Assembly: GCA_963734525.1 (NCBI GenBank)
Contig: CAVTHI010000006.1
Location: 49,740 to 113,739 of the forward strand
Source: an uncultured archaeon
GTDB taxonomy: Archaea > Micrarchaeota > Micrarchaeia > Anstonellales > Bilamarchaeaceae
DNA length: 64,000 nucleotides
Direction: 5' to 3'
Below the pieces are notes generated by a model, which did no database searches, was not told where the DNA came from, and saw only the letters and a list, made by a program, of their open reading frames with translations. The position numbers and the translations under genes are program-made. Shown here in pieces: positions 21,115-58,491 of the stretch. Every line of letters begins with the position of its first letter. Within the stretch, counting starts at the first letter, position 1.

Positions 21115-21167
21115 GGATGGATTGGGAAAGGGAAAGTTTAGAATAGTTGGTTTCGGAGAATGGACTG

Positions 21168-40249: not shown

Positions 40250-41287
40250 ATGAGGATCGTGCATTTCGACAGGAAGACCGGGGAGCTCAAGCTCCAGGTC
40301 GATACGCTCGACGACATGTGGCATCTCGACAAGGTGCTCGCCCCCGGGGACGAGGTCGAGGCCCACAGCCTGCGCACGTACAAGGTCGGGAACAAGGAGG
40401 AGAAGAAGTCGGTGAAGATACGCGTGAAGACCGAGCGCGTCGAGTTCTCGAAGACGTCTAACCGCCTGCGCATCCTCGGCCCCATCATATGGGGCGAGCC
40501 CGAGGAGTACATCCAGCTCGGGAAATACCACACTATCGACGTCGAGGAAGGGGGACGGATAAAAATCACCAAGCAGTGGAAGAACCACGAGGTGAAAAGG
40601 CTCCAGGATGCCGAGAAGGAATCCAAGAGGCCGCGCATCCGGATAATCGTGATGGACGAGGAGAAGGCTCTCACCGCTATGCTGAGGGTGTTCGGGGTGG
40701 AGTATGGCGCCGAATTCTACAGTTCCGGGAGCAAGAAGAGCGAGAATTACGAGAAGTCCGAGGGCGAGTATTTCGGCAACATAACTGCGGAAATCGAGCG
40801 CCATCCGGAAAAATACGTGGTGGCCGGGCCGGGATTCGCCAAGGAGAACCTGAAGAAGTTCATCGAGAAGCGCAAGCCCGAGCTCCTCAGGCGGATCGTG
40901 TTCGACAATGTCAGCTACGCCGAGCGCAGCGGGGTGAACGAATTGTTCAACCGGGGCGTCATCGAGAAAATCATGGGCGAGGAGCGGTTCGAGAAGGAGA
41001 TGAAGCTCATCGAGGAGCTCCTGATTGAGGTGCACAAGGACACCGGAAGGGCGGCGTACGGGATTGCCGAGGTGAGGAAGTCCGTCGAAGCGTACGCGGT
41101 GAAGAAGCTCATAGTCCTGGACGATTATATCCGCACCGACAAGCAGGCCGAAGCGGTCGTGGAGCAGGCGGATGCGGCGAAGGCCGAGATAGTGATATTC
41201 TCCTCAGAAGGCGATGCCGGCATGAAGCTCAAGGGGCTCGGGAAAATCGCGGCCCTCCTAAAGTTCAGGCTTCGGGACGCGGAATAG
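40250..41287 (+). CDS. pelA: pelota (Dom34) ribosome rescue factor
   Basis: DTLDDMWHL, LRILG.I, G.YHT, AGPGFAK, LKGLG.IAALLKF. Confidence 0.93.
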   Translation: MRIVHFDRKTGELKLQVDTLDDMWHLDKVLAPGDEVEAHSLRTYKVGNKEEKKSVKIRVKTERVEFSKTSNRLRILGPIIWGEPEEYIQLGKYHTIDVEEGGRIKITKQWKNHEVKRLQDAEKESKRPRIRIIVMDEEKALTAMLRVFGVEYGAEFYSSGSKKSENYEKSEGEYFGNITAEIERHPEKYVVAGPGFAKENLKKFIEKRKPELLRRIVFDNVSYAERSGVNELFNRGVIEKIMGEERFEKEMKLIEELLIEVHKDTGRAAYGIAEVRKSVEAYAVKKLIVLDDYIRTDKQAEAVVEQADAAKAEIVIFSSEGDAGMKLKGLGKIAALLKFRLRDAE

Positions 41288-41891
41288 TCCCAGGACGACA
41301 TTCTTGAAATAGGAGAGCCTGAGCATCGACTTGTGGAGATACGGCTCGAAGCGCAGCGAGTTGAGGGGGCTCTTCCTCAGAACGATTTCGAAATATCGGA
41401 CGCGGACCTTTTTATGCATGTAAGCCATGTCGTGGGAAGGATAGAATTTCGCCCCTCCTTTCTCATGGAATCTTATCGCCTCCGGGCCGGAAAACGCGTA
41501 TATCTTCCTGAACCCCCGCAGACGCGCCCGCCTTATGCGCTCGTCCCTCAGCATGGTCCCGACATGGATTCCGGATTTGCCCCGCTGGTATTTTTCCCGG
41601 ACATACAGCCCTTTCAGGTACGTGCTCCCAAGGAGACGGTCTGCGAGGCGGTCGTTATACGCGCCCACGCCCGCGATTTCCCCGGTCTCCTGGTTTTCTG
41701 CGACGATTACGATGGAATCCTTGAGGATATAGCCGATTATCGCCTTATCGTCCTGGGCGAGCCACCGGTCAAGTTCATCGTCCGGATGCTGGCCGCCGCG
41801 GCTCGCCCTCAGTGTCGAGAACCCGTCCCTGAATCACCTGCGCGACCTCGCGATAGTCCCCGGGCGCATAATCGCGGATGATAATCGTCAT
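41258..41891 (-). CDS. GNAT-family acyltransferase 1, frameshifted near 41832
   Basis: MTIIIRDYAPGD joined to FRDGFSTLRASRGGQHPD..LYVREKYQRGKSG..EAIRFHEK.GA; paralogue of 50249-50878. Confidence 0.75.
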
Positions 41892-43237
41892 GAAGGCCGG
41901 CCCCCGCCGCTGATTGCCCGCCGCCGGGACACCTTCGATACCAGCCGGTCGAGCTTTCCCCTCCGGTTCCGCTTGATTTCATCGGCCTGCTCGAACTCAA
42001 CGCGGACGGGTTCATTGAGGCATGCGATGGCTATGCGGCGCTCGATGTCCCTCCTGGACGAATCCTTGAAGCCCGCCGCTGATGCGACATAGCGGAAAAG
42101 GAAAAGGTCCTCCTTCTCCTGAATCAGCTGGTAGGTGCGGATTCCTTTCACGACGCATTCCAAATCCGTGAAACGGACCGAAAGCGGCGAGCGCATCCGG
42201 CCGCTCGGCAGGACGACCATGTCATCCGCCCGCCCTTCGAGCGATTTGAGCACAGGGAGGCCGCGCCCGCACGGGCAACGCCCGCCCCAGCTGGCAAGAT
42301 CCCCCATCTCGTACCTGATGAGGGGCATGGCGCTGTTGCAGAGCGAGGTCATCACCACCCTCCCGGTCCCCTGGCGGAGCGGGCGGTTCCCCCCGTCGAG
42401 TATCTCCATATGGAACGAGCCGGTGTTCACGTGCATGCCGTGCCCTTCCGGGCACTCCCATGCGATCGGGCCGAACTCCCATGAGCCGTACTTGTTGAAG
42501 ACCGGGCACGAGAACGACTCCTCAAGAAGGCTGCGCCAGCCCGGCGTCAGCATCTCGGCCCCCGATATGACCTGCTTCAGGCGCACCGGCCTTGCGCTGT
42601 CCAGGTTCGCCTGCGCAAGCAGCGTCATCGCCGATGGATAGTATCCGAGCGAGTCCGCCCCTTTCCTGCGCATGGTTTCCAGGTTCTTCCGCTCGTCTTC
42701 AAGGATATCGAGGGAGAACCACGGAAGGACGCCGTACATCCGCCCCGAGTCCCGCCGTTTCGTGCCGTCGTGGAAATGCAGGGCCGCCGTCCGGCTGAAT
42801 GGCGTCAGACCGATTGACAGGGAATTCAGCAGCATCAGCGCGGTGCGGATTGTAGAGGCATTCCTGTCCATGCGGACGGTGAGCGGCTTTCCGGTCGAGC
42901 CGGTGGTTTCGCGGGAGATGACTGCGCCGTCCCCGGCAATCCCGCCCCCGCCGGGGCTGAAAGCGCCGGGATTCGACTGTATCTGCTCCTTAGAGGTGGT
43001 AGCGAGGGATTCCAAAACCGAGAAAGCGTCGTCGTGCCCGGTGCCGGTGCGAAAACCGCTTTCCCCCAGCATTTCCTTATAGAATGAAACGCCCGAGGCA
43101 TCTTCTAGCGCCTTTGCCAGGCGCTTCTCCTGCATGCTCAGGATTTCGTCGGGGCTTTTCCACTGCTCCAAAGCGAATCCGGCAAGATAACGCGCACCCC
43201 CGAACATCCCCATGCCCGCACCAAAAACCCGGTTCAA
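41888..43237 (-). CDS. PaaK/CapK-like adenylate-forming ligase 1
   Basis: TTGSTG P-loop, YGSWE, MPLIRYEMGD, CPCGRG, GRADD. Confidence 0.87.
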   Translation of the reverse strand: MNRVFGAGMGMFGGARYLAGFALEQWKSPDEILSMQEKRLAKALEDASGVSFYKEMLGESGFRTGTGHDDAFSVLESLATTSKEQIQSNPGAFSPGGGGIAGDGAVISRETTGSTGKPLTVRMDRNASTIRTALMLLNSLSIGLTPFSRTAALHFHDGTKRRDSGRMYGVLPWFSLDILEDERKNLETMRRKGADSLGYYPSAMTLLAQANLDSARPVRLKQVISGAEMLTPGWRSLLEESFSCPVFNKYGSWEFGPIAWECPEGHGMHVNTGSFHMEILDGGNRPLRQGTGRVVMTSLCNSAMPLIRYEMGDLASWGGRCPCGRGLPVLKSLEGRADDMVVLPSGRMRSPLSVRFTDLECVVKGIRTYQLIQEKEDLFLFRYVASAAGFKDSSRRDIERRIAIACLNEPVRVEFEQADEIKRNRRGKLDRLVSKVSRRRAISGGGRPS

Positions 43238-44128
43238 CGGCCGCCGAGGCCGAGAATCATCCTTGCTTCGGATGGCGTTGCTACCGGGCGGCCGAGCTCC
43301 CCGGCGATTCGTGCGATGCGCTTGACCAGCATCTCGTTCGTGGCCGGGACCGTCTTGCCGTAATCGTAATACAGGTTGTCCTCCAGCCCGACACGCACAT
43401 GCCCGCCCATCACCATCGCGGACGTGTTGATTGGCAGCTGGAACTTCCCGCCGCCTGCCGCGCCCCAGACTGAGCCTGCCGGGATGCTGTTCACCTGGTG
43501 GACGATGTCCACGAAACGGCCGGGCATCGTGCCGAGAAGGCCGAAGAACAGGTTCATATAGAGCGGCTGCCTGAAGAAGGACTTCCTCGCGAGGTAAGCC
43601 GCATAGTTTATCATGCCGGTCTCGAAAATCTCGAGCTCGGGGCGGATTTCCTTCTCGGCCATGCGCTTTGCGAGGCTTTCAATCATGCTGCGGAGAATTG
43701 ATGCTCGGCTCCGTGGGAAAGTTCATCGAGCCCATCGAGAGGCTTGCGAAATCGGGCTTCGCGTCGCCTTCGAGGTCGAGGACGGAGGAGCGCTGCTCGA
43801 ATGTCTTGAATACGCGGCCGCTTGTCGTCACGCAGATGATGCCGTCCGGGCAGGCCTTCCTTACCTTCGAGATGATTTCCACGTAAAGCTCCTTCCTGCA
43901 GGAGGGCTTCCCGTCATCCTCCCGGGCGTGGATGTGGAAGAATGACGCTCCCGCCGCGTAGCACTTTCCCGCATCGGAGGCGATTTCATCAGGCGTGCAG
44001 GGGACGTTCGGATTGGCGGCCTTGGACGAGAAATTGCCCGTGAGTGCGGCGTTGATGATGAGCTTCCTGCCTATCGGCAACTCGGAGCTCCCCTCCAGGT
44101 GGTACAGCCCTCCTTCCGTTTCGTCCAT
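43234..44128 (-). CDS. beta-keto acid cleavage enzyme (BKACE/Kce, DUF849), frameshifted near 43685
   Basis: IINAALTG, PNVP.TPDEI, HIHAR, SLSMGSMNF, PELEIF, GGHVRVGLEDN, ATPSEAR. Confidence 0.9.
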
Positions 44129-44240
44129 GTCGACCAGGAATGATATTGGAGGCTCAAAAATAAAAAACCGAGGCGGCGGGCTGGAAATGGGGATGGCAGT
44201 GCGACGAGCGGAGCGATTGGCGGCATAAGCCGCGGGAAAG

Positions 44241-45500
44241 TCACGGGGAGGGGTCGATGCGGGATATGAAGTCCCGCGCCTTCCCCCGCGTCCCGTGCGG
44301 GATTTCCCCTACCGCCTCCACGAACACCGGGATTTTTTCCGGAAGCGCGGCGAGGATTCCGTCCCGCACCCGCCCCTCGGCCCCGGAAGGGTTGCCCGGG
44401 ACCGGCACGATTATCACATGAAGCGAGCCGTCCTTCTCCTGCACCGCATGGTAGGATATGAGGCGGTCGGAAGAGTTAATCGGAATCTCGACGAAAATCC
44501 ACGGGAAGCGCCTGCCGCTCGGGAGGAGTATGAAGTCGGACGTCCGCCCGTCCAGGGAATTGATGACATGCAGGCCGCGGCCGCACCTGCATCCCGCGCC
44601 GAGCGTGCCGCAGTCGCCGATTTCATAGCGAATGAAGGGCATGGAATGGCGCCAGAGCGGCGTCACCAGGAGCCTGCCGCTCTCCCCTGCCCCCGCAAGC
44701 CTGCCCTGCGCGTCGACCGCCTCAACGATGACATTGTCGGAATTTACATGCAGGCTCCCTTTTTCGCATTCCCAGGCGATGGCCCAGCACTCGCTCGCCG
44801 CGTAGTAGTTCCTGATGCTCGCGCCGAAGGATTCCTCAATCGCCTTCCTTGCGTGCTCCCGCAGGATTTCTGATACCGAGATGGCCTTCGTTATCCTCAG
44901 CCGCGAACCTGACCTCATGTTCTGCTCTGCCATCAGCGCCATCACGGACGGGTAGGCGTAGATGACGTCCGGCGAAGCCGATTTCAGGGCCAGGAAGTTT
45001 TTTCCGATGTCCGGAGAAGGGAGGACGTCCCTTACGCGGAAGAGCAGGGGCTGCAGCGGGAATTTCGGCATCCGGCTGTACGCCATGTTCGCGAGCAGGT
45101 CGCGCGGCGAGAAGCCGCACTGCATGAAGCTGTGCTGGCGCAGGGCGGCGCCAATCATCCCGTCGGAATGGTCCATGAAATGCTCTAGGGCCTCGCCGGT
45201 CGTCCCGGTGGTGCGGTATTTCCTGAGCGAATCCCGGCCGCAGGAGTCGCTGATGAACGATGGGCAGTCCGCGCGTATGTCCGCCTTTTTCAGTATCGGA
45301 AGCGACTGCAGGCTCCCCAGGCCTTCGAACGCGATGCCGTTCAGGCATTTCCGGTAGTGCGGCACATGCTTCCGCGCGTGGGCGAGCAGGAGGCCCAGCC
45401 TCTCCTCCTGTATGGACTCGAGCTCTTCGCGGCTTTTCCACTGGTTTATGCGCAGCTCGGCCAGTTTCAAGGCCACGCGCACGGGGTCTCCCAACGCCAT
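44241..45500 (-). CDS. PaaK/CapK-like adenylate-forming ligase 2
   Basis: TTGTTG, YAASE, MPFIRYEIGD, CRCGRG, GRTSD. Confidence 0.87.
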   Translation of the reverse strand: MALGDPVRVALKLAELRINQWKSREELESIQEERLGLLLAHARKHVPHYRKCLNGIAFEGLGSLQSLPILKKADIRADCPSFISDSCGRDSLRKYRTTGTTGEALEHFMDHSDGMIGAALRQHSFMQCGFSPRDLLANMAYSRMPKFPLQPLLFRVRDVLPSPDIGKNFLALKSASPDVIYAYPSVMALMAEQNMRSGSRLRITKAISVSEILREHARKAIEESFGASIRNYYAASECWAIAWECEKGSLHVNSDNVIVEAVDAQGRLAGAGESGRLLVTPLWRHSMPFIRYEIGDCGTLGAGCRCGRGLHVINSLDGRTSDFILLPSGRRFPWIFVEIPINSSDRLISYHAVQEKDGSLHVIIVPVPGNPSGAEGRVRDGILAALPEKIPVFVEAVGEIPHGTRGKARDFISRIDPSP

Positions 45501-45617
45501 GATGTGGATTCAGCGGAAGCGGATAAATAGTTATACATATGCATGCCTGCGGGCCATAACTGCGGCGCTTGCGAGCTATGCCTGCCGGCTACGCTCGGAT
45601 ATGTGCGATGCACAAGG

Positions 45618-46883
45618 TCATGACTGCGGCGCCTGCGGCCGGAGCTTCGACACGAACTCCCTCATCTTGCCCGAGGCCGGGCGCGGGATGTCCCCCACGA
45701 ATTCCACTTCGACGTCCATCCGCTCGGGGAGGACGTCATTGAACAGACGGATTATCTCGTCTTTGCCGCATGGCCGCCCCGCATCCGGAATTGCCAGCAC
45801 ATGCAGCTTCTCCAGGCTTTCCTGTATGACCTGGTAGCCGAGCAGGCCGCCGATGCAGCTCAGCTGCAGGGCGACTTGGGACCAAGCGGCCCCTTTTCCG
45901 CTTGGAAGCGTTATCATCTGGACGCTGCGCCCCTCCAGCGACCGGATGACATGGAGGCCGCGCCCGCAGGCGCATTTTCCGCCGAGCGTTGCGATGTCGC
46001 CGAGGCGGTAGCGGATGAACGGCATGGAATGCCTCCAGAGGGAGGTAATCAGGACTTCGCCCTTTTCGCCTTCGCGGACCGCTCGCCCGTCCCTGCCCAC
46101 GACTTCGAGTATGACCGAGTCCGAGTTCACATGCATGTTCCCGCGCTCGCATTCCCATGCGAGGGCCCACGACTCGTTCGAGCCGTAGTAGTTGCGGATT
46201 CCGCACCCGAAGGATTCTGAAATCAGCTTCCGCGCCCTGCCGCCCAGCATCTCGGATGAGGATACCGCTTTCGGGAATCGGAGCGGCGAATCCGTTTCCC
46301 TGTTGATGCCTGCGAGGATTGCGAGGATTGAGGGGTAGGCGAACAGCATGCTGGGGCGCAGGGCTTTCAGCGCGGATAGCATCTTTTCCGGGCGCTCGGA
46401 CGGCGCAATCGCGCTGACGCGGTAGATGAAGCGCTGGATTCGGGTGGTCACGAACTTCGAATGCGTGAGCGCCGCCAGGCGGTCGGACGGGCCGAAGCCG
46501 CACTCGGTCAGGACGTGGTAGCGCAGCGCGGAGCCGAAGACGCCCTCGGACTCGTCGAAATATATCATCATCGGCACGCCCGTCGTGCCGCCGGTGCTCA
46601 TCTTGTGCAGGCTTCCTGCATCGCACCTGCGGTTGATGAACGAAGAGGGGCTGGCATTGATTTCGTCTTTTTCCATAATCGGCAGGCTGGCGAGGTCTTC
46701 GAGACTGCGCACCTTCACTGAGCGGAACGCCTTGCGGAAATGCGGGACGTCCTCCCTCGCGCGCGAGAGCACGTTGAGCAGCCTGCTTTCCTGGATGGAT
46801 TCGAGCTCTTCGCGGCCCTTCCACTGGTTGCGCTTCATGAGCGCTATAATCAGGCCGGCATCCAGCAGGTTTTTCAGGCCCAT
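45618..46883 (-). CDS. PaaK/CapK-like adenylate-forming ligase 3
   Basis: TGGTTG, YGSNE, MPFIRYRLGD, CACGRG. Confidence 0.87.
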   Translation of the reverse strand: MGLKNLLDAGLIIALMKRNQWKGREELESIQESRLLNVLSRAREDVPHFRKAFRSVKVRSLEDLASLPIMEKDEINASPSSFINRRCDAGSLHKMSTGGTTGVPMMIYFDESEGVFGSALRYHVLTECGFGPSDRLAALTHSKFVTTRIQRFIYRVSAIAPSERPEKMLSALKALRPSMLFAYPSILAILAGINRETDSPLRFPKAVSSSEMLGGRARKLISESFGCGIRNYYGSNESWALAWECERGNMHVNSDSVILEVVGRDGRAVREGEKGEVLITSLWRHSMPFIRYRLGDIATLGGKCACGRGLHVIRSLEGRSVQMITLPSGKGAAWSQVALQLSCIGGLLGYQVIQESLEKLHVLAIPDAGRPCGKDEIIRLFNDVLPERMDVEVEFVGDIPRPASGKMREFVSKLRPQAPQS

Positions 46884-46927
46884 ATGACAACCGCGCGTTT
46901 CATTTCAGGGGCGTGCATGGCACACCG

Positions 46928-47686
46928 TCATTTGCCGAGCTCGCGCGCCTTCTGTGTCGCGAATCGGACTGCCTCGTGTATCGCCTTGTCCGCGCCCTTC
47001 TGCTCCAGCATCTTCAGACCCGCCTCCGTGGTCCCGCCCGGGCTCGCGACCGTCTCGATGATTTTTTTCGTGCTCCATCCGCTCCTCATGAGCTTCCCGG
47101 TCCCGAGGAACGTCTGGGCCACGCATTTCTCGGCGGTCTCGCGGGTGAGCCCGCTTTTTACGGCCTCCTCAATCATCGCCTCTGCGAAAAAAGCCACGAA
47201 TGCCGGCCCCGAGCCGGATGCCGCCGTGATCGGGTCGAGATGGGACTCGTCGGTCTTGATGCAGAGCCCGAGCGACGAGAACGCGGTCAGGAAGACCTTC
47301 TCCTTCCTCTCGACCTCAGGATGCAGTGAGTATGCGATGACCGCGGATTCCACCTCCGCGCATATGTTCGGCATCACGCGGATGACGTTCTCCGCGCCCC
47401 ATGATTCGAGCTTTCCTATCGGCACTCCGGCGGCGCACGATACGATGAGCGGCGCGCCCACAAGCTGCCTGACCACTTCCTCGACGTGGGCCGGCTTCAC
47501 GGCGATTATTATCATGTCCGCGGTCTTGACCATGGAAAGGTCCTTGACCGGCAGGGCCCCGAGCTCGGATGCGATAGTCGCCGCGTTCTTGAAATCGCGG
47601 TCCACAAGCAGGAGCTCGTGGCTCTTCGAAAGCACGCGCGCGAATACGCTCCCAAGCCGTCCGATGCCTACGATTGCGATTCTCAT
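46928..47686 (-). CDS. proC: pyrroline-5-carboxylate reductase
   Basis: AVKP, RVMPN, SGSGPAF, SPGGTT. Confidence 0.94.
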   Translation of the reverse strand: MRIAIVGIGRLGSVFARVLSKSHELLLVDRDFKNAATIASELGALPVKDLSMVKTADMIIIAVKPAHVEEVVRQLVGAPLIVSCAAGVPIGKLESWGAENVIRVMPNICAEVESAVIAYSLHPEVERKEKVFLTAFSSLGLCIKTDESHLDPITAASGSGPAFVAFFAEAMIEEAVKSGLTRETAEKCVAQTFLGTGKLMRSGWSTKKIIETVASPGGTTEAGLKMLEQKGADKAIHEAVRFATQKARELGK

Positions 47687-47764
47687 GGAAACCCCTCGTA
47701 CTGGTAATGCATGTCTTGCCAACCGCTAATAAAGATGAAGGATTCGGCTGATTGCCCGGCGGAA

Positions 47765-49012: not shown

Positions 49013-49072
49013 CGATATCCACCCAATCAGCCGTTCATCTCGCTGCAACCCGTTCATATCACTGCGAACCGT

Positions 49073-50158
49073 TCATACCACTACGGCCATGTCCGAGCTT
49101 CCGACGACCTCGGTATAGACGAAGCCGAGCTCGCGGCAGATGGATTCGATGTCCTTGCCCCTGATGCGCTCGAGCTCGTGCGAGAAGTAGTTCGTTATTC
49201 CCTTGCAGAGGACGCGGCCGTCATCGCCGGCTATCTCGACGACGTCCCCCTTGTCGAAATTCCCGCTGACCGACAGGACATGCTGGGGTATTATTCCGCA
49301 GCTCTTGCCGATTGCGCAGGACATCGCCTGTTCGCTGACCGTGATGCGCCCCTTGGGCTCGGATGCGAACGCGAGCCAGTGCTTGCCCTCGCTGAGCCGG
49401 GGCTTGTCCGCGGGCAGGAACACGGTGCCGGATTCCCCGCTTATCGCCGTGGCCAGCGAGCCGTTCTTCGTCCCGTTCGCGACTATGACCTTCACCGAGG
49501 CTTCGGACGCGATTTTGGCCGCGCGCAGCTTTGCCGCCATCCCGCCCCTGCCCAGCGCATTGGCGCCCGAGCACATCCCCAGCGTGTCGTCGGTGACGAT
49601 TTTCACTTCCCGGATTAGCTTCGCCCCGTCCTCTTTGGGGTTCCTGTCGAACAGGCCGTCGACGTCCGTGAAAATCAGGAGCAAATCGGCGTCTATCGCC
49701 ACGGCGACATGCGCGGCCAGCGCGTCGTTGTCCCCGAAGGCGGACTTCTTGATGTCGAGCACGGTGACCGTGTCGTTCTCGTTGATTATCGGCACGGCCT
49801 TGTGCGCCATCAGCGTGTTCAGGGTGTTGCGGATGTTGAGGTATTTCATCCGGTTGGAGAAGTCCGCGTTCGTGAGCAGGACCTGCGCGAGCGTCCTGCG
49901 TTCCTCGAACGCGTTCTCGTACGCGTGCATCAGGTCGCTCTGGCCTATCGCGGCCAGCGCCTGGAGCATGGCCACGTCCTTGGGCTTCTCGTTCAGGCCG
50001 AGCTTCTTCATGCCGGTGGAAATGGCTCCAGAGGTGACTATGGCGAACTCGTGCTCCTGCATGCTCAGAATCTGGCTCGCAAGCTGGTCGATGAATATCG
50101 TGTTGACGCCGCTCCCGCCATTAAGCAGGGAGCTGCCTAGCTTGAGGACAATGCGCAT
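49073..50158 (-). CDS. proB: glutamate 5-kinase with PUA domain
   Basis: VLKLGSS, TSGA, INENDT, FGDND, GGM.AK. Confidence 0.95.
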   Translation of the reverse strand: MRIVLKLGSSLLNGGSGVNTIFIDQLASQILSMQEHEFAIVTSGAISTGMKKLGLNEKPKDVAMLQALAAIGQSDLMHAYENAFEERRTLAQVLLTNADFSNRMKYLNIRNTLNTLMAHKAVPIINENDTVTVLDIKKSAFGDNDALAAHVAVAIDADLLLIFTDVDGLFDRNPKEDGAKLIREVKIVTDDTLGMCSGANALGRGGMAAKLRAAKIASEASVKVIVANGTKNGSLATAISGESGTVFLPADKPRLSEGKHWLAFASEPKGRITVSEQAMSCAIGKSCGIIPQHVLSVSGNFDKGDVVEIAGDDGRVLCKGITNYFSHELERIRGKDIESICRELGFVYTEVVGSSDMAVVV

Positions 50159-50248
50159 GACTGTTAGCAGCAATGAGGTGAATTTAAACCTATGTTGCCG
50201 ACGCTGGTTGAATCGACATATGACGAAGCGGCGCAATCAGCCGGCGCT

Positions 50249-50878
50249 TCAAGCGCTGGCGGCAGGCTTGCCCGGCCCGCGGAAGAAATTGAGGATATAG
50301 CCGTATATCCGGCCGAGCCGGTGCACGTATGGCTCGATGTGCAGGCTGTTCCACAAGCTTTTCCTCAGTTCAATCTCGTAGTATTGCACGGTCACGGTCC
50401 CGAAGAGCTTCGCGTTATGCCGGGGGTAGAAGACGGCGCCGAACTTCTTGTGGAAGCCGACCGCTTCGGGGGTGGAGAATCCGTACATCTTCCGGTAGCC
50501 GAGCCTCTTGGCCTCGCCGATCGTCGCCTCGCGGAGCGGGCGGCCGATGCTGAACCCGGCCTTGCCGTGCTGGAACGCCTCCCTGACGTAATGGTTCCGG
50601 CTGTATGTGGAATTGATTATTCGCGCCGGCAGGTTGTCCGTGAGCGCGCCGATTCCCGCAAGCTCCTCGGTCCCTTCCACCTCGGCTACGAACACTATCG
50701 AGCCGTGGAGCAGCAGCTTGAGGAGGCTTTTGCCGTCCCTGGCCAGCAGCAGGTCCACCTCGTTGTCCGGATGCGTCCCGCCCCTGCTTTTTCGGAGCGT
50801 GCTGCTCGCGTCGCGGAAGACGCCTACGGCCTGCGGCCCGTCCCCTTCGCGGTATCTTCGGATTATCAGCCCGGCCAC
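50249..50878 (-). CDS. GNAT-family acyltransferase 2
   Basis: IIRRYREGD..YVREAFQHGKAG..EAVGFHKKFG; paralogue of 41258-41891. Confidence 0.75.
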   Translation of the reverse strand: MAGLIIRRYREGDGPQAVGVFRDASSTLRKSRGGTHPDNEVDLLLARDGKSLLKLLLHGSIVFVAEVEGTEELAGIGALTDNLPARIINSTYSRNHYVREAFQHGKAGFSIGRPLREATIGEAKRLGYRKMYGFSTPEAVGFHKKFGAVFYPRHNAKLFGTVTVQYYEIELRKSLWNSLHIEPYVHRLGRIYGYILNFFRGPGKPAASA

Positions 50879-50883
50879 GCCAT

Positions 50884-52143
50884 TCACTCCCCGCTTCCCG
50901 CATCCGCCCTGACTTTCGACATGACGGTCTGGATTTTTCCGGTCCTTCCGCGGGCAATAGAGGGGACCTCCTCGAATTCCACGCGGATTTCCTCGCCCAG
51001 GCACCCGGCCCGGATTCTCGATTCGACTTCCTTGCGTCCTTTTGCCCCGATGCCCCCGGACGGGACGTAGCGGAAAACGAAGAGCGAGGGATTCTCCTGG
51101 ATTATCTGGTATGAAAGCATGCCGGGGATATCGTCCATGAGGTTTATCGAGCGCGCCGAGCGGATTTTCCCGCTCGGGAGCACGAGGATGTCGTCCTGCC
51201 GCCCGCGGGCCACGCGGAGCGTCCGGAGCCCCCGCCCGCATTTGCACGGCGGGCCGAAGGAGCCGCTGTCGCCCAGGCTGTACCTGATGAACGGCATCGC
51301 CCGCCTCCAGAGAGGGGTGACGACAATCGTGCCCGTCTTTCCGCCAGGCACGCCTTTCCCGTCCTCGCCGACAATCTCCACCGCCACCATGTCCTCCTGG
51401 ATGTGCAGGCTGCCTTCCCTGCACTCCCACGCCGCCCACGAGCTCTCCATCGAGCCGTAGCGGTCGAAGACCGGGCAGCCGAACGACGAGGATATCTCCT
51501 TGCGGACCGCCGGCGCGAGCGTTTCGCCGCCCGAGAGCGCGAGCTTCAGCTGGAGATTCAGGCCTTCCGAGGAATTGATGCGGGCCAGCGGGAGCAGGAT
51601 GGACGGGTAGGAGATCAGGATGCCGGGCCGGAGCGAGGCGAGGCGGAGCAGGGTTTCGGTTTCGTCCGCGCGGACGTCCAGGTAGCGGCAACGGAACACC
51701 CCCAGGCGCTGGAGGAGGTTCGGGCGGGACTCGTAATGCGCTATCCGGACCTGCAAATCGAAGAGGCCGGCCCCGCATTCGGTGAGGTGGTGCGTCTCGA
51801 ACGCGACGCCGTATGCGGATTCCGCGCGCGAATAGAACAGCGGGACCTGGATGCCGGTCGAGCCTGACGTGTATGTCGCCTGCAGGGAGCGCCTGTTGAA
51901 TGCCGAGCTTACGAATAGCTCGGCGCTGTCGCGCACCACCGTCTTGGACAGGATGGGCAGGGACTGCAAATCCTCCATGGAGCGGACATCGAATCCGTCC
52001 AGGCTTTTCCTGTAGAACGGGACCGTTGCGCGCGCGTGCGCGATGAGGGATAGGAGCTTCTTTTCGGAAATCCTGCGCAGGGCGCCTTCGCTGAGCCACT
52101 GGTTGCGCTTCATCTGGGAAAGAAGCAGCGGGGTGTCGAACAT
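50884..52143 (-). CDS. PaaK/CapK-like adenylate-forming ligase 4
   Basis: TSGSTG, YGSME, MPFIRYSLGD, CKCGRG, GRQDD. Confidence 0.87.
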   Translation of the reverse strand: MFDTPLLLSQMKRNQWLSEGALRRISEKKLLSLIAHARATVPFYRKSLDGFDVRSMEDLQSLPILSKTVVRDSAELFVSSAFNRRSLQATYTSGSTGIQVPLFYSRAESAYGVAFETHHLTECGAGLFDLQVRIAHYESRPNLLQRLGVFRCRYLDVRADETETLLRLASLRPGILISYPSILLPLARINSSEGLNLQLKLALSGGETLAPAVRKEISSSFGCPVFDRYGSMESSWAAWECREGSLHIQEDMVAVEIVGEDGKGVPGGKTGTIVVTPLWRRAMPFIRYSLGDSGSFGPPCKCGRGLRTLRVARGRQDDILVLPSGKIRSARSINLMDDIPGMLSYQIIQENPSLFVFRYVPSGGIGAKGRKEVESRIRAGCLGEEIRVEFEEVPSIARGRTGKIQTVMSKVRADAGSGE

Positions 52144-52144
52144 T

Positions 52145-53026
52145 TCATCCTCCGTTGGGGAGGGGCTGCGGATAGCCTATGAAGACAAGGCGCAGGTAGA
52201 GCGTGATTTTCCGCATCGTGTTGACATAGGCGCGCTTGCCGAAAACCTCGTAGTGGTTCTCCTCTATCACGCTGAGGATCTCGCGGTAGAGCGTCGAGGC
52301 GAGGGCTATCACCATGCGGACCTCGTTGTGGATCGTCCCGATGCAGCTCATCGCCTCGCGGTAGTACCTGCGGGCGCGCTCGACCTGGAACTTGAGGAAG
52401 TCCATCAGGCCCTCCTTCTTCCGGAGCGAGAGTATGTCCCCGATTGTGAGGCCGAACTTCGCGAGCTCGTCCTTCGGGAAATACACGCGGCCCATGCGGG
52501 CATCCTCGCCCACGTCGCGGAGTATGTTCGTCAGCTGCATGGCTATGCCGAGGCTGACTGCGCAGCGCTTGGAGCGCTTCGCGTTCTCGATGCCGAAGAT
52601 TCTCATCAGCATGAGCCCCACGACGGAGGCCACGCGGAAGCAGTAGCGGCGCAGTTCCGTGAAGGTGCCGTATTCCTTTTTCGAGATGTCCATGCTCACG
52701 CCCTTTATGAGCTCGAGCGGGTATCGGAGCGGGATTTCGTATTTCTTCATGATATGGACGAACGGGTTGAGGACCGGGTCGGATGAATGGCCGGTTTCGT
52801 AGGCCTCGAGGAACCTCCTCTTCCAGTCGCGGATGAGGAGCCTCTGGATTCTCGGGTTGCCCTCGTTGTCGTCGACGAGGTCGTCGGTGTGCCTGCAGAA
52901 CGCGTAAATCGCGTAGAACGCGTTCCTCCTCTCGCGGCCCATGAACCTCGATGCGAAATGGAACGTCTTGGAGCCCCGGCTTATCGAGTTCTCCGCATAC
53001 TTGTAGTCAACCTGCAGATTTCCCAC
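52145..53026 (-). CDS. crtB: phytoene/squalene synthase family protein
   Basis: SKTFHFAS, YAFCRHTDDLVD, YCFRVASVVG, QLTNILRDVGED..GRVY.P. Confidence 0.88.
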   Translation of the reverse strand: MGNLQVDYKYAENSISRGSKTFHFASRFMGRERRNAFYAIYAFCRHTDDLVDDNEGNPRIQRLLIRDWKRRFLEAYETGHSSDPVLNPFVHIMKKYEIPLRYPLELIKGVSMDISKKEYGTFTELRRYCFRVASVVGLMLMRIFGIENAKRSKRCAVSLGIAMQLTNILRDVGEDARMGRVYFPKDELAKFGLTIGDILSLRKKEGLMDFLKFQVERARRYYREAMSCIGTIHNEVRMVIALASTLYREILSVIEENHYEVFGKRAYVNTMRKITLYLRLVFIGYPQPLPNGG

Positions 53027-53061
53027 CTTTCCTCATTGTAATTATATTGCGCTGGAAAGAT

Positions 53062-53914
53062 TTATATCGTCATCTGCCGTTTTGGCCAATCTTTGCGCCT
53101 GCGGCTGTTTTCCAGCGTATGCCCGAGTATGCATGGCGGCGTGCGGATGCAGAACCAGAACTTGCCGGGCAGGCTCATTTTCGCGGATTCGCCGGCGAAA
53201 CCGGTCTTGAGCCTGAATGCCCGCGCAGCGAACAGCATTTCCGGGCCCGCGCCAGGCGGGGAGGCCCCCCCTTCCGCGAGCGCACGGATTTCATCATACT
53301 TGTCGTCGAACGTGAAGAGGACGCCCTTCGCGCACCGGTGCAGGACGCGGTCCGGGGCCAGGACGAAAAGCGGCTGGATGAGCAGGGTGACGAGGAAGTC
53401 GTAGGTGAAGCGGCTGCGCTGGTTCGCGGCCCTGATGATTTGCGGGTCGGCAAGCAGGTTCCTGCCGAAAAGCACCTTCCCGTTCCTGATGCGGCCGCGC
53501 AGCAGCTGCTGCTCGAGGCCGAGGAGGGAGGTAAGCGAGAGGGCGGGCTTCAGCTTGCGCCGCCATCCAACCGGCCCCATGACGTAGAATGGCCGCGCGG
53601 CTAACCCGGCCCCGCCAGCCAGGAACGAAAACCCGTCCGCGAGCTTTCTCCCGTACGAGCGGACGAGCTTGAGATTGTGCCTGCGGTTCTGCTCCCAGAA
53701 CAGATATCGAAGCCGAGCGCTCCACAGCGCTGACGTCACGCTCGTCCTTGAGGATGATGTGCATGTCGATGTCGCTTTCCCCGATTGTGAAATCGCCGCG
53801 GGCCGCGCTGCCGGAAAGGAGGATGCAGTCGATTCTGCCGGGAAATTCGCCAGTGATTAGCCGGACGAAGTCCTTGAGGAACGCATCCAGCGCGGCTTCA
53901 TCTCCCTTGGGCAT
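53062..53914 (-). CDS. minimal-type nucleotidyltransferase-domain protein 1, frameshifted near 53705
   Basis: LSGSAARGDF..SDIDMHII; C-terminal half in a second frame. Confidence 0.7.
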
Positions 53915-53940
53915 GATGGAGCATACACCTTCTGCCTTAA

Positions 53941-54801
53941 TCAGTTTTTGCCCGCGCCCGGCTTTCCCTCGGGGCGCATATGCCTGACGATATTGTGCGC
54001 GAGGATATGGATTGGCGCCGCGAGGCAGAAAAGGACCTTCTCCGGATAGCTGACTGCGGGGCCGGCTTGCAGGATGTGCCGCTTCATATAGACCGCTTCG
54101 CGGGCGAACAGCGGCAGGGGGATTCCCCGGATGATGTCGCCCTCGAATGAGAAGAAAACCGCGCGGAGCGAGCGGCGGAATGCGCGGGACGGGGAGATGA
54201 GCGAAAGCGGAATCATCGCTACGGCGGAGAGCAGGTCGTATGTGACGATGCCGGGATTTTCCACGACTGGAACCTTCGCCGCGCCCTGTTTTTGCGGCGG
54301 TTTCCCGTATATGGCCTTCATCGACATCCGGCCGCTGCTGCGGAGCGATTTGGAGAAGCCGTGCACCCAGTCCAGGCTGGAAAAAAAGTCGCTGGCATCG
54401 TTTTTCGGGGTCGAGGGGCCTACGACCATGAAGGGGGGATAATCCTGCCCGGAAACCTGCCCCGATACGCCTTGCGAGCCTTGCGGTCTGCGCGGACCGA
54501 CCTGGCCCGCACCAATGATTCGCTCGGCGTTTTTCCGGTCCTGCGCCTCCCTGAGCATCATCCCGTGCTTCCTGTCGAGCTCGTGGAAAAGCGCGAACGC
54601 GGCGTCCTTCACCGCCTGCACGTCGGCGTCCTTCTTCACGACCACGATGAGGTCCATGTCGCTGCTGCCTATCTGGAAATCGCCACGGGCCGCGCTGCCC
54701 CCGAGCAGGATGTAATCGACCTTCTGCGGGACGCGCGACTCGAGCTGGGAGACGAAATCCCTCAGGAATGCGTCCGCCTTCACCATGTCGCGCGCGCCCA
54801 T
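53941..54801 (-). CDS. minimal-type nucleotidyltransferase-domain protein 2
   Basis: LGGSAARGDF..SDMDLIVV; paralogue of the neighbouring gene. Confidence 0.75.
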   Translation of the reverse strand: MGARDMVKADAFLRDFVSQLESRVPQKVDYILLGGSAARGDFQIGSSDMDLIVVVKKDADVQAVKDAAFALFHELDRKHGMMLREAQDRKNAERIIGAGQVGPRRPQGSQGVSGQVSGQDYPPFMVVGPSTPKNDASDFFSSLDWVHGFSKSLRSSGRMSMKAIYGKPPQKQGAAKVPVVENPGIVTYDLLSAVAMIPLSLISPSRAFRRSLRAVFFSFEGDIIRGIPLPLFAREAVYMKRHILQAGPAVSYPEKVLFCLAAPIHILAHNIVRHMRPEGKPGAGKN

Positions 54802-54853
54802 ACCTGCCGATTCTCCTGCGCGGTTTAAAAATAACGGATGTGGAAGGGCTTGC

Positions 54854-55586
54854 ATGGCATCAGCGGTGCAGGTGGCGGAGCTTGCGAAGGTCATCAACGA
54901 CAAGATTATCGTGGACCGCATCTCGTTTTCGGTAGAGGAGGGCGAGGTGTTCGGCCTGCTGGGGGCGAACGGCTCGGGAAAGACGACCACGTTCAACATG
55001 CTGTCCGGGCTCCTGGCCCCGTCGTCGGGCTCCATAACCATCCTCGGGAAGACGGTGAAGGAGTTCCGCAAATCGAGGCCGGAAATCGGCTTCGTGACGC
55101 AGGAGGACTCGTTCTACGAGACGCTGACCGTAAGGGAGAACATGGAGTATTTCGCGTCGCAGTTCGGCGTTTCCGGCAACGGACTCGCGCGAGCGCGTGA
55201 AGAAGCTGCTTTCGCAGATGAAGCTCACGGAAAAAAGCGACGTGCTCGCGTCCAAGCTTTCCGGCGGCATGAAGAAGAGGCTCAACATCGCCTGCTCGCT
55301 CGTGCACGACCCGAAAATCGTGTTCCTGGACGAGCCGAGCGTGGGGCTGGACCCCGTTGTCCGCCGGGAAATCTGGGCGGTCATAGAGGAGCTCCATGCG
55401 TCGAAGAAGACGATAATCATAACCTCGCATTACATGGAGGAGATAGAGCGCCTCTGCCGGCGCGTCGCAATCATGTTCGCCGGGAGGATAGTCGACAGCG
55501 GCACCCCCGGGGAATTGAAGCAGAAATACAAGCTCAAGCAGATGGAGGACGTGTTCGCGTACCTCGTCCGGCCGGTGGTCCAATGA
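54854..55586 (+). CDS. ABC exporter ATP-binding subunit, frameshifted near 55195
   Basis: GANGSGKTT, then LSGGMKKR, FLDEP, TSH in a second frame. Confidence 0.9.
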
Positions 55587-57553
55587 AGGCCCTTTCCGCA
55601 ATCAAGAAGGAGGTCCTCGAGGTCGTGCACGACCGCACGATGCTCCTCGTCCTGCTCGCGTTCCCGGTATTCGTCATGGTCTTCATGGGAAGCTCGTTCC
55701 GCTCGATGGAGATAAACGGCCTCCCGATAGGCCTCTCCGGGCCAGAGAACATCAGCGCGAGCCCGCTTTTTGCAGGCCTGAACGAGTCGGCGGCGTTCAA
55801 GCTCCAGAGCTTCAACAGCGAGGAGGACGCCATGACCTCGTTCAGGAACGGCAGGCTGCGGGCCGTCATCGTGGTGCCGCAGGACTTCGAGGAATCGCTC
55901 GGGCGGGGCAACGGCTCGGCGGTCCGCATCATCGTCGACAATTCCGACATCGCGCTCGAGCAGTCGGTCCTCGCCGCATTGTCGTCGGTCATCGAGGCCT
56001 CCTCGCGCGACATAACGAAAAGCTACGTCACATCCGCATGGGACGACCTCATCCTGCTTAACGGCTCGGCCGCGCAGCTTGGCGAGGGATTGGCGCAGAC
56101 TAAGGCGAAGATGAACCAGACCAAGGCCTCGCTGGTGCAGCTCCGCACGGGGATGGGCGGCATCGGCATCGATTCGCTCGAATCGTCCCTCGAAAACGCA
56201 TCGGACAGCGTCGCATCGCTGAAAGCACAGCTCGAGGCGCAGAAGGCCGACCTCGCCAACATCTCCGCGGACAACGACGCCATGCTCAACAAGACGGGCG
56301 CGTTCCTAATCAACGCGAGCGATGCGCTCAACCAGTCGCAAACCACCGTGCAAAGCACGCACGGCAAGCTCAAGGCGCAGGTGACGCAGCTGAACGGCAC
56401 GATTGCGGCGCTCGGCGCGTCGATTGCAGGGTTAGAGGCGATAAAGGCGGGAAGCTCGGACCCGACCGTCATTGCCGCGCTCGATTTCAACATCGCCAGC
56501 CTCCAGTCGCTGAGGAGCACCTCGCAAAGCCAGATGGTTGACGCGCAGGCGGAGATTTCCGACCTGGAATCCCTGAATGACACGCTCGATTCGTTCGCAC
56601 AAGCCCTCGAGGACTATTCCGAAGAGGTGGAAAGCGCGAAGGCGGGCCCGGACAGGACGGCGGAGCTCGCGGCCGCGCTGGATGGCGCCATGCTGAAGCT
56701 GACCAGGCTGGATTCGTCCTTCGAAACGGCCAGGGCCGAGGTGGCCGAGCTCAAGGCTCTCCTTGGCGAGATTAAGTCCACGACCAACGAGATCGACGGG
56801 ACGCTGGACGACGCGATTGCGCAGACCGCATCGGTCGACGCCCTGATAGGCACGCTGCAATCCACCGTGGCCGCCCAGACCGGGAAGGACCCTGACACCA
56901 TCGCCGCCCCGCTTTCGGTGACGGTCGAGAGCCAGTACGAAAAGCCGAGCTTCGTCGACTTCATAATGCCGCAGGTGATTGCGGTGTCGCTCCTGTTCTC
57001 GTGCTTCCTGTTCGGCTCGATAGGCATAGTCCGCGAGAAGACCAGGAAGACCATCGTCCGCGCGCTCCTTGCGCCGGATGCGCTCATGAATCTCGTCCTC
57101 GGTAAGATTGTGACGCTGGTCATGCTGTCTTTCGGGCAGATTGCGGTCATCCTGCTGGTGGCCGTGCTGTTTTTCGGCGTGAACGCCCCGGACAATTTCC
57201 TCATGCTGCTGTGGGGGACCGCGATTTCCTCGCTCGTCCTGACTTCGATAGGCATCATAGTCGGATTCTACGCGCGAAGCGAGTCCGCGGCCATACAGAG
57301 CTGCCTCCTGCTCGCGATTCCGATGCTCTTCCTGGGGAACATCATCTTCTCGCCGGATTTGCTGCCCGCGTACACGCAGGTGCTCCAGCAGCTGCTGCCG
57401 CTTGCGCATGTGACGAGCATATTCAAGGTCGTGCTCATAACGAACGGCGACCCGGCCGTGGACATCGCGGCCCTGCTCTCGTATTTCGTGCTCCTCGCGA
57501 TCATCCTCGCGTATATCGTCTTCAACAGGCGCGACATCACGAACTACATCTGA
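55583..57553 (+). CDS. ABC-2 type permease with long extracellular coiled coil (YhgE/Pip-like)
   Basis: MKALSAIKKE..RT TM1; ~350-aa helical ectodomain; five C-terminal TMs with the REK motif. Confidence 0.85.
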   Translation: MKALSAIKKEVLEVVHDRTMLLVLLAFPVFVMVFMGSSFRSMEINGLPIGLSGPENISASPLFAGLNESAAFKLQSFNSEEDAMTSFRNGRLRAVIVVPQDFEESLGRGNGSAVRIIVDNSDIALEQSVLAALSSVIEASSRDITKSYVTSAWDDLILLNGSAAQLGEGLAQTKAKMNQTKASLVQLRTGMGGIGIDSLESSLENASDSVASLKAQLEAQKADLANISADNDAMLNKTGAFLINASDALNQSQTTVQSTHGKLKAQVTQLNGTIAALGASIAGLEAIKAGSSDPTVIAALDFNIASLQSLRSTSQSQMVDAQAEISDLESLNDTLDSFAQALEDYSEEVESAKAGPDRTAELAAALDGAMLKLTRLDSSFETARAEVAELKALLGEIKSTTNEIDGTLDDAIAQTASVDALIGTLQSTVAAQTGKDPDTIAAPLSVTVESQYEKPSFVDFIMPQVIAVSLLFSCFLFGSIGIVREKTRKTIVRALLAPDALMNLVLGKIVTLVMLSFGQIAVILLVAVLFFGVNAPDNFLMLLWGTAISSLVLTSIGIIVGFYARSESAAIQSCLLLAIPMLFLGNIIFSPDLLPAYTQVLQQLLPLAHVTSIFKVVLITNGDPAVDIAALLSYFVLLAIILAYIVFNRRDITNYI

Positions 57554-57630
57554 ACGGATGGCTTCCGGGCGAGGGGGCCTGCGCCGAAGCAAACCGCAAG
57601 CGGTTTTAATTGCATAGGGGATGCTACTGC

Positions 57631-58116
57631 ATGGCATCGTTGAATCGTCTTGTGTTCCTGATTGCGATATTGGCCGTCCCGCTTTCGTTCGCGGACGTAG
57701 GCCCTGCCCCGGCGCCCCCGAAGGTCGTATTGCACCTCATGGACGGCGGCGCGCCTGCAGCATCGGTCTCGCAGGTGACATACCACTGCATGAATGTAGA
57801 AAGCGCCGAGCCCGGCTCGGTGAACCCTTACCCGGTCGACCTTCCGTGCAATGCAGGCGTCTGCACCAACGACGGGAGCTGGTACTACAAGTTCAACCCC
57901 TGCTTCGGATTCCCTGAGGGCTACCTCACATACGAATACGGCGGAAAGCAGGTGCGGTCCGAGGCGGTCGGCTCGAACAAGAGCTATGACAAGTATGACA
58001 TCACGATAGACGCGCCCACCGGGCAGGTGTCCGGAAACGTCCAGAGCTCGTGCAACCTCACCGGGTTCATCCTGGCCGCGGTAGCGGCATCGGCGCTGGC
58101 ATATTCGCGCAGATGA
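57631..58116 (+). CDS. small secreted, C-terminally anchored Cys-containing protein
   Basis: Signal peptide, ADVGP, C-terminal SSC-hydrophobic-RR. Confidence 0.65.
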   Translation: MASLNRLVFLIAILAVPLSFADVGPAPAPPKVVLHLMDGGAPAASVSQVTYHCMNVESAEPGSVNPYPVDLPCNAGVCTNDGSWYYKFNPCFGFPEGYLTYEYGGKQVRSEAVGSNKSYDKYDITIDAPTGQVSGNVQSSCNLTGFILAAVAASALAYSRR

Positions 58117-58167
58117 AAATGTGAATGCGCAGGCTCAGGCACGGAGCCAAACGCGGGGATTGGGCAG

Positions 58168-58491
58168 ATGGATTTCATTTCCGCATACGCGCTCACGGTT
58201 TCAATCGAGGCCGTGGCGCTCTTCCTTCTCCTCCGCAGGGATTATGGCGCCGCCCTCATCGCCCGCAATGCCGTCCTCGCCAGCTCGCTCACGCTGCCGT
58301 TCGTCTGGTTCGTTTTTCCGGCCCTCGGCCTCTCATGGGGGCCGCAGACCGCGCTTGCCGAGGCGTTCGCCGCCTTAGCGGAGGCGGGATTCTATGCCAT
58401 CGCGTTCAAGGGCATGAAGATGAAGGATGCGCTCCTATCGAGCGTTTTGTGCAACTGGGCGTCGTTCATCATCGGGCTCGCAGTCGCCTAG
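58168..58491 (+). CDS. small 4-TM membrane protein
   Basis: LTVSIE..SSLTLPFVW..AE....AE..N.ASF pattern. Confidence 0.7.
   Translation: MDFISAYALTVSIEAVALFLLLRRDYGAALIARNAVLASSLTLPFVWFVFPALGLSWGPQTALAEAFAALAEAGFYAIAFKGMKMKDALLSSVLCNWASFIIGLAVA

Follow-up and report, generated by a model that had tools for sequence, protein, structure and literature searches.

The 64,000-nucleotide stretch of DNA analyzed here (the window; G000:C6:49740-113739) belongs to an uncultured archaeon of the Micrarchaeota, whose genome comprises 1.15 Mb in 9 contigs at about 59-60% G+C. It carries a long minus-strand run of genes for four PaaK/CapK-like ligases, two GNAT-fold acyltransferases, a beta-keto acid cleavage enzyme (BKACE), the proline biosynthetic enzymes ProB, ProA, and ProC, a prenyl-diphosphate synthase family protein (SQS_PSY), and two nucleotidyltransferases (NTases), next to a divergent ABC-2 transporter. 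An earlier note, made from the sequence alone, had taken this run for a single undescribed biosynthetic cluster. The window is instead a mosaic: ligase, GNAT, and BKACE genes make up a species-variable island that occupies a fixed insertion hot spot, with the pelota gene on one side and a backbone made of SQS_PSY, the ABC-2 transporter, and an aminoacyl-tRNA synthetase on the other; the proline genes, independent of the island, are another occupant of this hot spot. Judging from the sequences and their placement, we consider it moderately probable that the island serves to tailor a surface glycoconjugate by the addition of acyl or aminoacyl groups.

Evidence for a core module comes from its distribution in 60 relatives, the same sample being used throughout (36 genomes of the same genus and 24 from 17 other genera of the order; G and L numbers below denote genomes and loci). 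The GNAT occurs in 15 of the 36 genus genomes, BKACE in 13, and the ligases in 12, with 4 to 9 ligase matches per positive genome; each of the three was found in 0/24 genomes of the other genera. All ligase-positive and all BKACE-positive genomes carry the GNAT, and 0/21 GNAT-negative genus genomes have either, although these counts come from kin genomes, many of them incomplete, and so describe an association and not independent events. Moreover, over 41200-55176, the window is colinear with a metagenome contig of 18.5 kb that shares about 93% identity with it. The core genes are thus not scattered among relatives in the manner of a chance cluster of acquired genes, which the earlier note had named as the alternative, and the gene arrangement exceeds chance. 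What survives of the proposed acyl-activation and transfer pathway is a conserved ligase/GNAT/BKACE module that co-occurs within the genus, not a single pathway made of all the named genes.

Three genomic contexts emerged when the fetched loci were annotated by tblastn and Pfam (the low-GC flanks of L023 and L024 were left out of the annotation). The first is the hot spot between pelota and the SQS_PSY-ABC-synthetase backbone, whose content varies. This genome has four ligases, two GNATs, one BKACE, and proBAC; G023 has three ligases in an order that is otherwise as in this genome; G032 has eight ligases and a BKACE with no pro gene between pelota and the SQS_PSY gene (crtB); G022, G019, and G006 have ligases interposed among pro genes; and G026 has the order crtB-proA-proC-pelota with no ligase.

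The second context is a glycan locus containing one to six ligases, found in six genomes (G032, G035, G019, G022, G023, and G006). Neighboring genes encode CysD, CysN, a type-I phosphodiesterase-family protein, and GT4 or GT2 glycosyltransferases, along with a polysaccharide pyruvyl transferase (5/6), a GNAT (4/6), a Wzx-type flippase (2/6), a TrpB-like pyridoxal phosphate (PLP) enzyme (2/6; 452-456 bits against an NCBIfam cut-off of 366), and an ELFV-type dehydrogenase (2/6). In the third context, a GNAT-BKACE pair, with or without one ligase, lies beside a YchF-type GTPase gene (G034, G028, and G033). GNAT, BKACE, and ligase genes are likewise found together in G001, G002, and G014. The fetched loci of the genus range from about 38 to 63% G+C, and these three low-GC genomes (L023-L026 and L033) keep all three gene types.

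A surface glycan is the best supported target of the module because the same ligase and GNAT families occur inside the glycan-assembly loci of six relatives; BKACE loci outside the phylum, described below, point the same way. The earlier note had left the choice between a surface glycan and an isoprenoid, and the latter option comes down to gene adjacency.

The four ligases are 35-38% identical pairwise, and no further copies were found in this genome. They match only PaaK, F390-synthetase, and DVU_1553-type NCBIfam models (E values of 1e-10 to 1e-42). Their closest solved structures are PaaK chains (PDB 2Y4O, 2Y27, 4R1L, and 9S3L; E values of 1e-19 to 6e-14; ligase4 matches them at 1e-19). 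Nevertheless, no ligase reaches a PaaK equivalog cut-off, with scores of 50-86 bits against cut-offs of 646-700 (TIGR02155, 50-76 against 646; NF041878, 79-86 against 700), and no paa catabolic context surrounds them. Adenylation competence is defined by a P-loop and a C-terminal G-K motif. Both are kept: in an alignment of the four window ligases with four distant homologues, T92, G94, T96, and G97 of the P-loop (T-x-G-x-T-G) and G402 and K403 of the G-K motif are invariant in all eight sequences. The same eight sequences share an invariant Cys241, His247, and Cys300-x-Cys302, a set that distinguishes the Micrarchaeota family from PaaK and might constitute a metal site peculiar to this CapK-like branch. 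PF27533 is a precomputed domain of most of the ligase homologues listed.

In a maximum-likelihood tree, all 58 ligases of the genus form one clade against six outgroups (Shimodaira-Hasegawa-like approximate likelihood ratio test, 99), a single lineage-specific radiation. Ligases from the hot spot and from the glycan loci are interleaved on this tree. For instance, the clade of ligase4 includes a G022 glycan-locus ligase that adjoins a GNAT 50% identical to GNAT2.

The GNAT family is narrow and divergent. GNAT1 and GNAT2 are 49% identical, with one TGA inside, and neither matches a Pfam family at E<=0.001; their one NCBIfam match is weak (E 0.007). An AlphaFold (AF2) model built from 20 homologues (predicted local distance difference test [pLDDT] score, 82.7; predicted template modeling [pTM] score, 0.79) was compared with PDB by Foldseek, and all of the top matches listed are GNATs, with E values of 4e-10 to 6e-8. 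Among 1.84 billion cluster representatives searched, the family numbers 27 with a threshold of E<=1e-30 and 34 with one of E<=1e-10; proteins that match more weakly are repeat proteins or ordinary GNATs. Acetyltransf_1, _7, and _10 are matched by remoter relatives of the GNAT profile. Small-molecule GNATs (phosphinothricin/ArsN-type, SpeG, and PaiA) share the fold, as evidenced by template modeling (TM) scores of 0.5-0.6 when normalized to the query and 0.6-0.78 when normalized to the target, and a Q-x-G-K-x-G loop of the modeled island GNAT is placed at the site where GNATs bind the pyrophosphate of coenzyme A (CoA). However, identity to these enzymes is only 12-21%, and the island GNAT, unlike them, adds to the fold a conserved N-terminal segment (R-K-S-R-G-G-x-H-P-D) and a helix at the C terminus. 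The 515-residue family member P0004 was examined for a fusion of GNAT and BKACE, but no Pfam domain matches it and a fusion is unsupported.

The third component belongs to the BKACE (DUF849) family. Against PF05853 (gathering score, 24.8), its halves reach 136.8 and 153.6 bits and together cover the full profile; intact BKACE proteins of relatives score 304-316 bits. The founder of the family, the 3-keto-5-aminohexanoate cleavage enzyme Kce, supplies the best NCBIfam model and shares the full-length domain. Even so, the island BKACE falls below every equivalog cut-off (intact relatives, 276-281 bits against 382 for Kce) and, in contrast to Kce, lacks lysine-fermentation neighbors; its clade recurs instead near ligases, GNATs, and glycosyltransferases.

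Outside the Micrarchaeota, the closest relatives of this BKACE (44-55% identity) are spread over many bacterial and archaeal phyla. A PaaK-like ligase lies within 8 kb of BKACE in 8 of 74 such loci, and the Micrarchaeota-type GNAT was not found by tblastn in these 74. Sixteen of the 74 were annotated, chosen for long flanks and diversity and including five already known to bear ligases; glycosyltransferase or other glycan genes occur in six of the sixteen (L062, L073, L074, L075, L077, and L127), and envelope-related genes occur in two more (L110 and L132). Two of the sixteen, both bacterial, contain a ligase-GNAT-BKACE trio. The trio of L062 sits among four GT4 genes, and its GNAT aligns to the Micrarchaeota GNAT profile in hhalign with 92.9% probability (E 4e-7); that of L117 sits beside an ELFV-type dehydrogenase gene, and its GNAT aligns with 62% probability.

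A full-text literature search returned no description of this island, in keeping with the statement of the earlier note that it recognized no described pathway with this gene set; the retrieved passages on Micrarchaeota and phenylacetate mention only PaaD and proline statistics. Nothing relevant was returned for AglU/MMP1084, a gene for the attachment of threonine to an archaeal N-glycan. The nearest parallel is VpsH, encoded in the Vibrio polysaccharide (VPS) locus of Vibrio cholerae. According to a 2026 mBio paper, VpsH is genetically required for the presence of glycine on a uronic acid of the lipid-linked VPS disaccharide, and a vpsH deletion traps a glycine-free lipid-linked disaccharide (PMC13463779). 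The protein had earlier been annotated as phenylacetate-CoA-ligase-like; the authors liken it to CapK-like proteins and leave its chemistry undefined (PMC13463779). VpsH is a free-standing PaaK-like protein with some 420-450 residues, encoded in a polysaccharide locus, and genetic evidence links it to an amide decoration (glycine on L-GulNAcA) of a lipid-linked sugar. The Micrarchaeota ligases are also PaaK-like and also occur in glycan loci, in six relatives, a likeness of family and context. By this analogy, VpsH is a genetic precedent for the ligase type. In contrast to V. cholerae, the archaea carry 4-9 ligase paralogues, invariably accompanied by a dedicated GNAT and, in most cases, by a BKACE, and half of the ligase-positive genomes have no detectable uronic-acid-forming dehydrogenase.

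Taken as a tailoring module, the island would work as follows. The ligases would activate carboxylates with ATP as acyl-adenylates, which would pass to CoA or, as proposed for the PaaK-like VpsH, directly to an amine. BKACE would supply an additional acyl-CoA from a beta-keto acid and acetyl-CoA, and the GNAT would move an acyl group from CoA onto an amino group. Together, these steps would place acyl or aminoacyl decorations on a cell-surface glycoconjugate, and the number of ligase paralogues (4-9 per genome) would set a species-specific decoration pattern.

The acceptor may lie close at hand, since an AglB-like oligosaccharyltransferase (7603-10716) and a GT1-family glycosyltransferase (2656-4146) are encoded in the window, which indicates that the organism N-glycosylates proteins. 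N-glycosylation is therefore a possible acceptor pathway for the products of the island.

Several observations weigh against the surface-glycan assignment. No glycosyltransferase or flippase gene adjoins the island in this window. The perfect nesting of ligase and BKACE within GNAT-positive genomes may reflect one or few gain or loss events, and the annotated outside loci were a selected set that included known ligase carriers. The data fit CoA-ligase chemistry and direct amide-ligase chemistry alike. Also, neither G032 (9 ligase matches; 88% complete) nor G034 (7 matches; 92% complete) yielded a nucleotide-sugar 6-dehydrogenase gene (PF03721). This gene is present in the genome of the window, in 6 of 12 ligase-positive genus genomes, and in 6 of 24 ligase-negative ones; since only half of the ligase-positive genomes have it, uronic acid is unlikely to be the universal carboxylate. 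The narrower idea that the ligases specifically amidate uronic acids is weakened accordingly.

The chief rival to a surface-glycan module is a soluble small-molecule pathway, in which ligases and GNAT would build an N-acyl amino acid, an oligo-amide, or an osmolyte-like compound without a nonribosomal peptide synthetase (NRPS), drawing amino acids from ProBAC, TrpB2, and an ELFV-type dehydrogenase. The interleaving of proBAC, TrpB-like PLP enzyme, and ELFV dehydrogenase genes with ligases hints at amino acids as substrates, and because it fits a soluble metabolite equally well, we keep this pathway as the main competitor. It is also consistent with the tandem arrays of up to eight paralogous ligases, with the GNAT-BKACE pairs that stand beside the YchF-type GTPase gene without glycan genes, and with the existence of PaaK-like ester and amide makers of small molecules, the BagE/FevW model being among the matches. 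Nevertheless, the annotated loci showed no carrier protein, thioesterase, or condensation enzyme, and the ligases of six genomes lie among glycosyltransferase, pyruvyl transferase, and flippase genes, as the bacterial trio of L062 lies among glycosyltransferase genes. On this balance, we regard a soluble product as unlikely, albeit worth serious attention.

A more elaborate version of the surface-glycan proposal is that the ligases form NRPS-independent, template-free arrays, each paralogue being specific for a single amino acid or acyl unit that it adds to the glycan, fed in an auxotrophic DPANN symbiont by ProBAC (here) and by TrpB2 and an ELFV-type dehydrogenase (in relatives). With 0-9 copies per species, such arrays might write a surface "barcode" for host attachment or virus escape. 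We offer this idea as a speculation with a rather small chance of being right.

Within the window itself, the open reading frame (ORF) listing and the Pfam and NCBIfam scans confirm the content, order, and strand of the minus-strand run (Table 1). The junctions in the earlier note are borne out as well: crtB and ligase4 are separated by 1 bp, and kce/ligase1 and ligase1/GNAT1 each overlap by 4 bp (ATGA). A further 4-bp overlap joins the start of GNAT2 to the stop of ligase4.

Table 1. Genes of the hot spot and its flanks, in window coordinates
Feature	Position	Strand	Assignment and remarks
pelota/eRF1-like gene	40250-41287	+	Borders the variable island on one side in every relative examined
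GNAT1	41258-41891	-	Lineage-specific GNAT-fold acyltransferase, paralogue of GNAT2; +1 frameshift near 41833
ligase1	41888-43237	-	PaaK/CapK-like adenylate-forming enzyme; PaaK-type NCBIfam models below cut-off; tree
BKACE (kce)	43234-44128	-	Beta-keto acid cleavage enzyme family, PF05853; one-base frameshift near 43686
ligase2	44241-45500	-	PaaK/CapK-like adenylate-forming enzyme
ligase3	45618-46883	-	PaaK/CapK-like adenylate-forming enzyme
proC	46928-47722	-	Proline synthesis, Pfam
proA	47765-49057	-	Proline synthesis, Pfam
proB	49073-50236	-	Proline synthesis, Pfam
GNAT2	50249-50887	-	Divergent GNAT-fold acyltransferase; AF2 model and Foldseek
ligase4	50884-52143	-	PaaK/CapK-like adenylate-forming enzyme; PDB PaaK matches
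SQS_PSY (crtB)	52145-53026	-	Head-to-head prenyl-diphosphate synthase family, PF00494
NTase-1	53062-53914	-	Pol-beta-type nucleotidyltransferase, paralogue of NTase-2; frameshift between 53618 and 53703
NTase-2	53941-54801	-	Pol-beta-type nucleotidyltransferase, PF01909
ABC transporter ATPase	54785-55586	+	Divergent; frameshift near 55176-55180
ABC-2 family permease	55583-57553	+	Large coiled-coil extracytoplasmic loop
Class Ib (Trp/Tyr) aminoacyl-tRNA synthetase	58125-59741	+	Other conserved flank

Four of these genes, namely, GNAT1, BKACE, NTase-1, and the ABC ATPase, contain single-base frameshifts in this assembly. The N-terminal 20-odd residues of GNAT1 are in a different frame than the remainder, and positions 1-126 and 127-274 of the PF05853 profile match two overlapping frames of the BKACE gene, which is in frame in all relatives. 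A relative's protein likewise matches NTase-1 in two frames. In the ABC ATPase, whose start is probably 54854, the signature motif, Walker B, and H-loop follow in the +1 frame. The 922-residue ORF that the earlier note had read as a single ABC exporter consists of the first half of the ATPase, about 135 out-of-frame residues (approximately residues 132-266), and a separate permease from 55583; given the frameshift, it is an accidental read-through and the fused protein is an artifact.

If the shifts in GNAT1, BKACE, and NTase-1 were real inactivating mutations, the island would be decaying. The shift sites in GNAT1 and BKACE lie outside long homopolymers, and a contig of at least 99% identity from sequencing run X1 retains the extra base at 41833. 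However, X1 may be the source sample, so this base neither confirms nor refutes a real frameshift, and the X1 contigs are short (367-731 bases) and shallow. A contig from X3 (about 93% identity) and contigs from X5, on the other hand, have exactly one base fewer at both 41833 and 43688. (Another X3 contig, joining 46008 to 49766, was disregarded for its depth of 4 and the 29 bases on its shorter side.) At most 0.16 of the window's words were found in the sequencing runs, and the four runs compared gave contigs of relatives; the comparison offers no independent deep coverage of this strain, and its uncovered parts carry no information.

Housekeeping genes of the window are split across frames too: GatE (4276-6358), PyrD (12868-13910, shifted twice over three frames), and PyrK (13867-14686). 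The completeness score of the genome is 53% despite its only 9 contigs, which fits an indel-rich assembly and is probably explained by pervasive single-base indels. Because essential genes are frameshifted as well, the four frameshifts are most likely assembly indel errors and not gene decay, and a decaying island seems improbable to us.

Still less probable is a catabolic or salvage role in acyl-CoA metabolism, in which the ligases would activate organic acids from the host or environment, BKACE would split beta-keto acids as happens when lysine or carnitine is broken down, and the GNAT would be a bystander. The nearest characterized relatives of the ligases are indeed phenylacetate-CoA ligases, and the characterized BKACE models matched are all degradative (Kce and the 3-oxoadipate and 3,5-dioxohexanoate enzymes), but every one of these matches is far below its equivalog cut-off. 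Moreover, no ring-epoxidase, beta-oxidation, or lysine-fermentation genes lie beside the ligases in the annotated loci, and degradation is a poor fit to 4-9 paralogues in genomes of 1.0-1.6 Mb, to strict co-occurrence with a narrow GNAT family, and to placement in glycan loci.

The remaining genes of the run belong to the backbone or to the proline set, and their distribution sets them apart. The "terpene synthase" of the earlier note is, more exactly, a head-to-head squalene/phytoene synthase family protein: it scores 255 bits against PF00494 and stays below the HpnD (234 against 278.6), CrtB (229 against 550), and HpnC (170 against 250) cut-offs. Whatever the ligase status, SQS_PSY occurs in 29/36 genus genomes and in 15/24 genomes of other genera. 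The ABC-2 permease occurs in 30/36, including GNAT-negative genomes, and in 5/24 others, usually adjoining SQS_PSY; in ligase-free genomes such as G005 (C1), G010 (C12), and G018 (C7), it lies within about 2 kb of SQS_PSY. The proA gene is present in ligase-free G012 and G026 and was not found in ligase-positive G032, G001, G002, and G014. SQS_PSY, the ABC-2 transporter, and proBAC are thus distributed independently of the ligase/GNAT/BKACE core, which they would track in a single co-inherited cluster. Because SQS_PSY and the permease are independent of ligase status, the ideas that the product is an isoprenoid derivative and that a dedicated ABC transporter exports it amount to adjacency. SQS_PSY and the ABC-2 transporter form, in their own right, a conserved pair across the genus, in organisms presumed not to synthesize lipids themselves.

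Both NTases are nucleotidyltransferases, as the earlier note had it, of the Pol-beta type (PF01909) and not sugar nucleotidyltransferases. NTase-2 matches PF01909 at E 6e-6 and has a GS...D.D motif and a helical C-terminal domain. Its structural model is poor (pLDDT, 64.5), and in fold it resembles aminoglycoside nucleotidyltransferases only weakly (E>=1e-3; TM about 0.35), so that this likeness is a lead only. In distribution, the NTase is intermediate between core and backbone, following the ligase arrays in part.

Least probable of all is one unified cluster, in which an SQS_PSY-derived isoprenoid would be acylated by the ligases, GNATs, and BKACE, possibly with proline-derived units, an intermediate would be activated by the NTases, and the product would be exported by the ABC transporter: the compact co-oriented run with its tight junctions, the ligase that directly adjoins SQS_PSY in 9 of 13 ligase-positive genomes (this genome counted), the ligases among pro genes in this genome, G019, G006, and G022, and the enrichment of the NTase in ligase-positive genus genomes (7/12 against 2/24 ligase-negative ones) speak for it, but SQS_PSY and the permease adjoin each other also without GNAT, ligase, or BKACE, proA comes and goes regardless of the ligases, and the clade of the ligase that adjoins SQS_PSY differs from genome to genome, which suggests a shared position and not a partnership. 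Nor was a phytoene-desaturase-type partner (PF01593) found in the genome of the window, where only a 31-residue FAD-motif match appeared, although this genome is incomplete and absence is not implied.

The surroundings of the hot spot yielded further observations. A minus-strand ORF of 1304 residues (34852-38766) has no Pfam match; unannotated ORFs of 1228-1265 residues near pelota in G032 (L051:505-4194), G034 (L053:186-3983), and G022 (L055:14116-17802) are likened to it by size only. On the opposite flank, the ORF of the Trp/Tyr-type synthetase (57610-59741) has an N-terminal extension of about 170 residues in the window, and in G032 (L052:2424-4935), an ORF with a LAGLIDADG domain precedes the synthetase; the extension may be a homing-endonuclease remnant or another frameshift. 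Elsewhere in the window, riboflavin genes (17880-22268 and 26383-27009) encode DHBP synthase, lumazine synthase, GTP cyclohydrolase II, RibD, and a CTP-dependent riboflavin kinase, a gene set for riboflavin synthesis that is notable in a reduced DPANN genome.

Next to nothing is known of what DPANN archaea, which live attached to other cells, display on their surface. An island that can take up about 12 kb is costly for a genome of only 1.0-1.6 Mb, a sign that surface chemistry is under strong selection. The "terpene plus exporter plus proline" cluster, for its part, is a positional mosaic and counsels caution in reading function from gene adjacency in small genomes. As for the enzyme families, the ligase component has received its first genetic characterization only recently, with the 2026 work on VpsH, and BKACE enzymes, so far known from catabolism, gain a candidate biosynthetic role. 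Finally, the occurrence of the ligase-GNAT-BKACE trio in bacterial glycan loci suggests that the glycan-tailoring module may be widespread.

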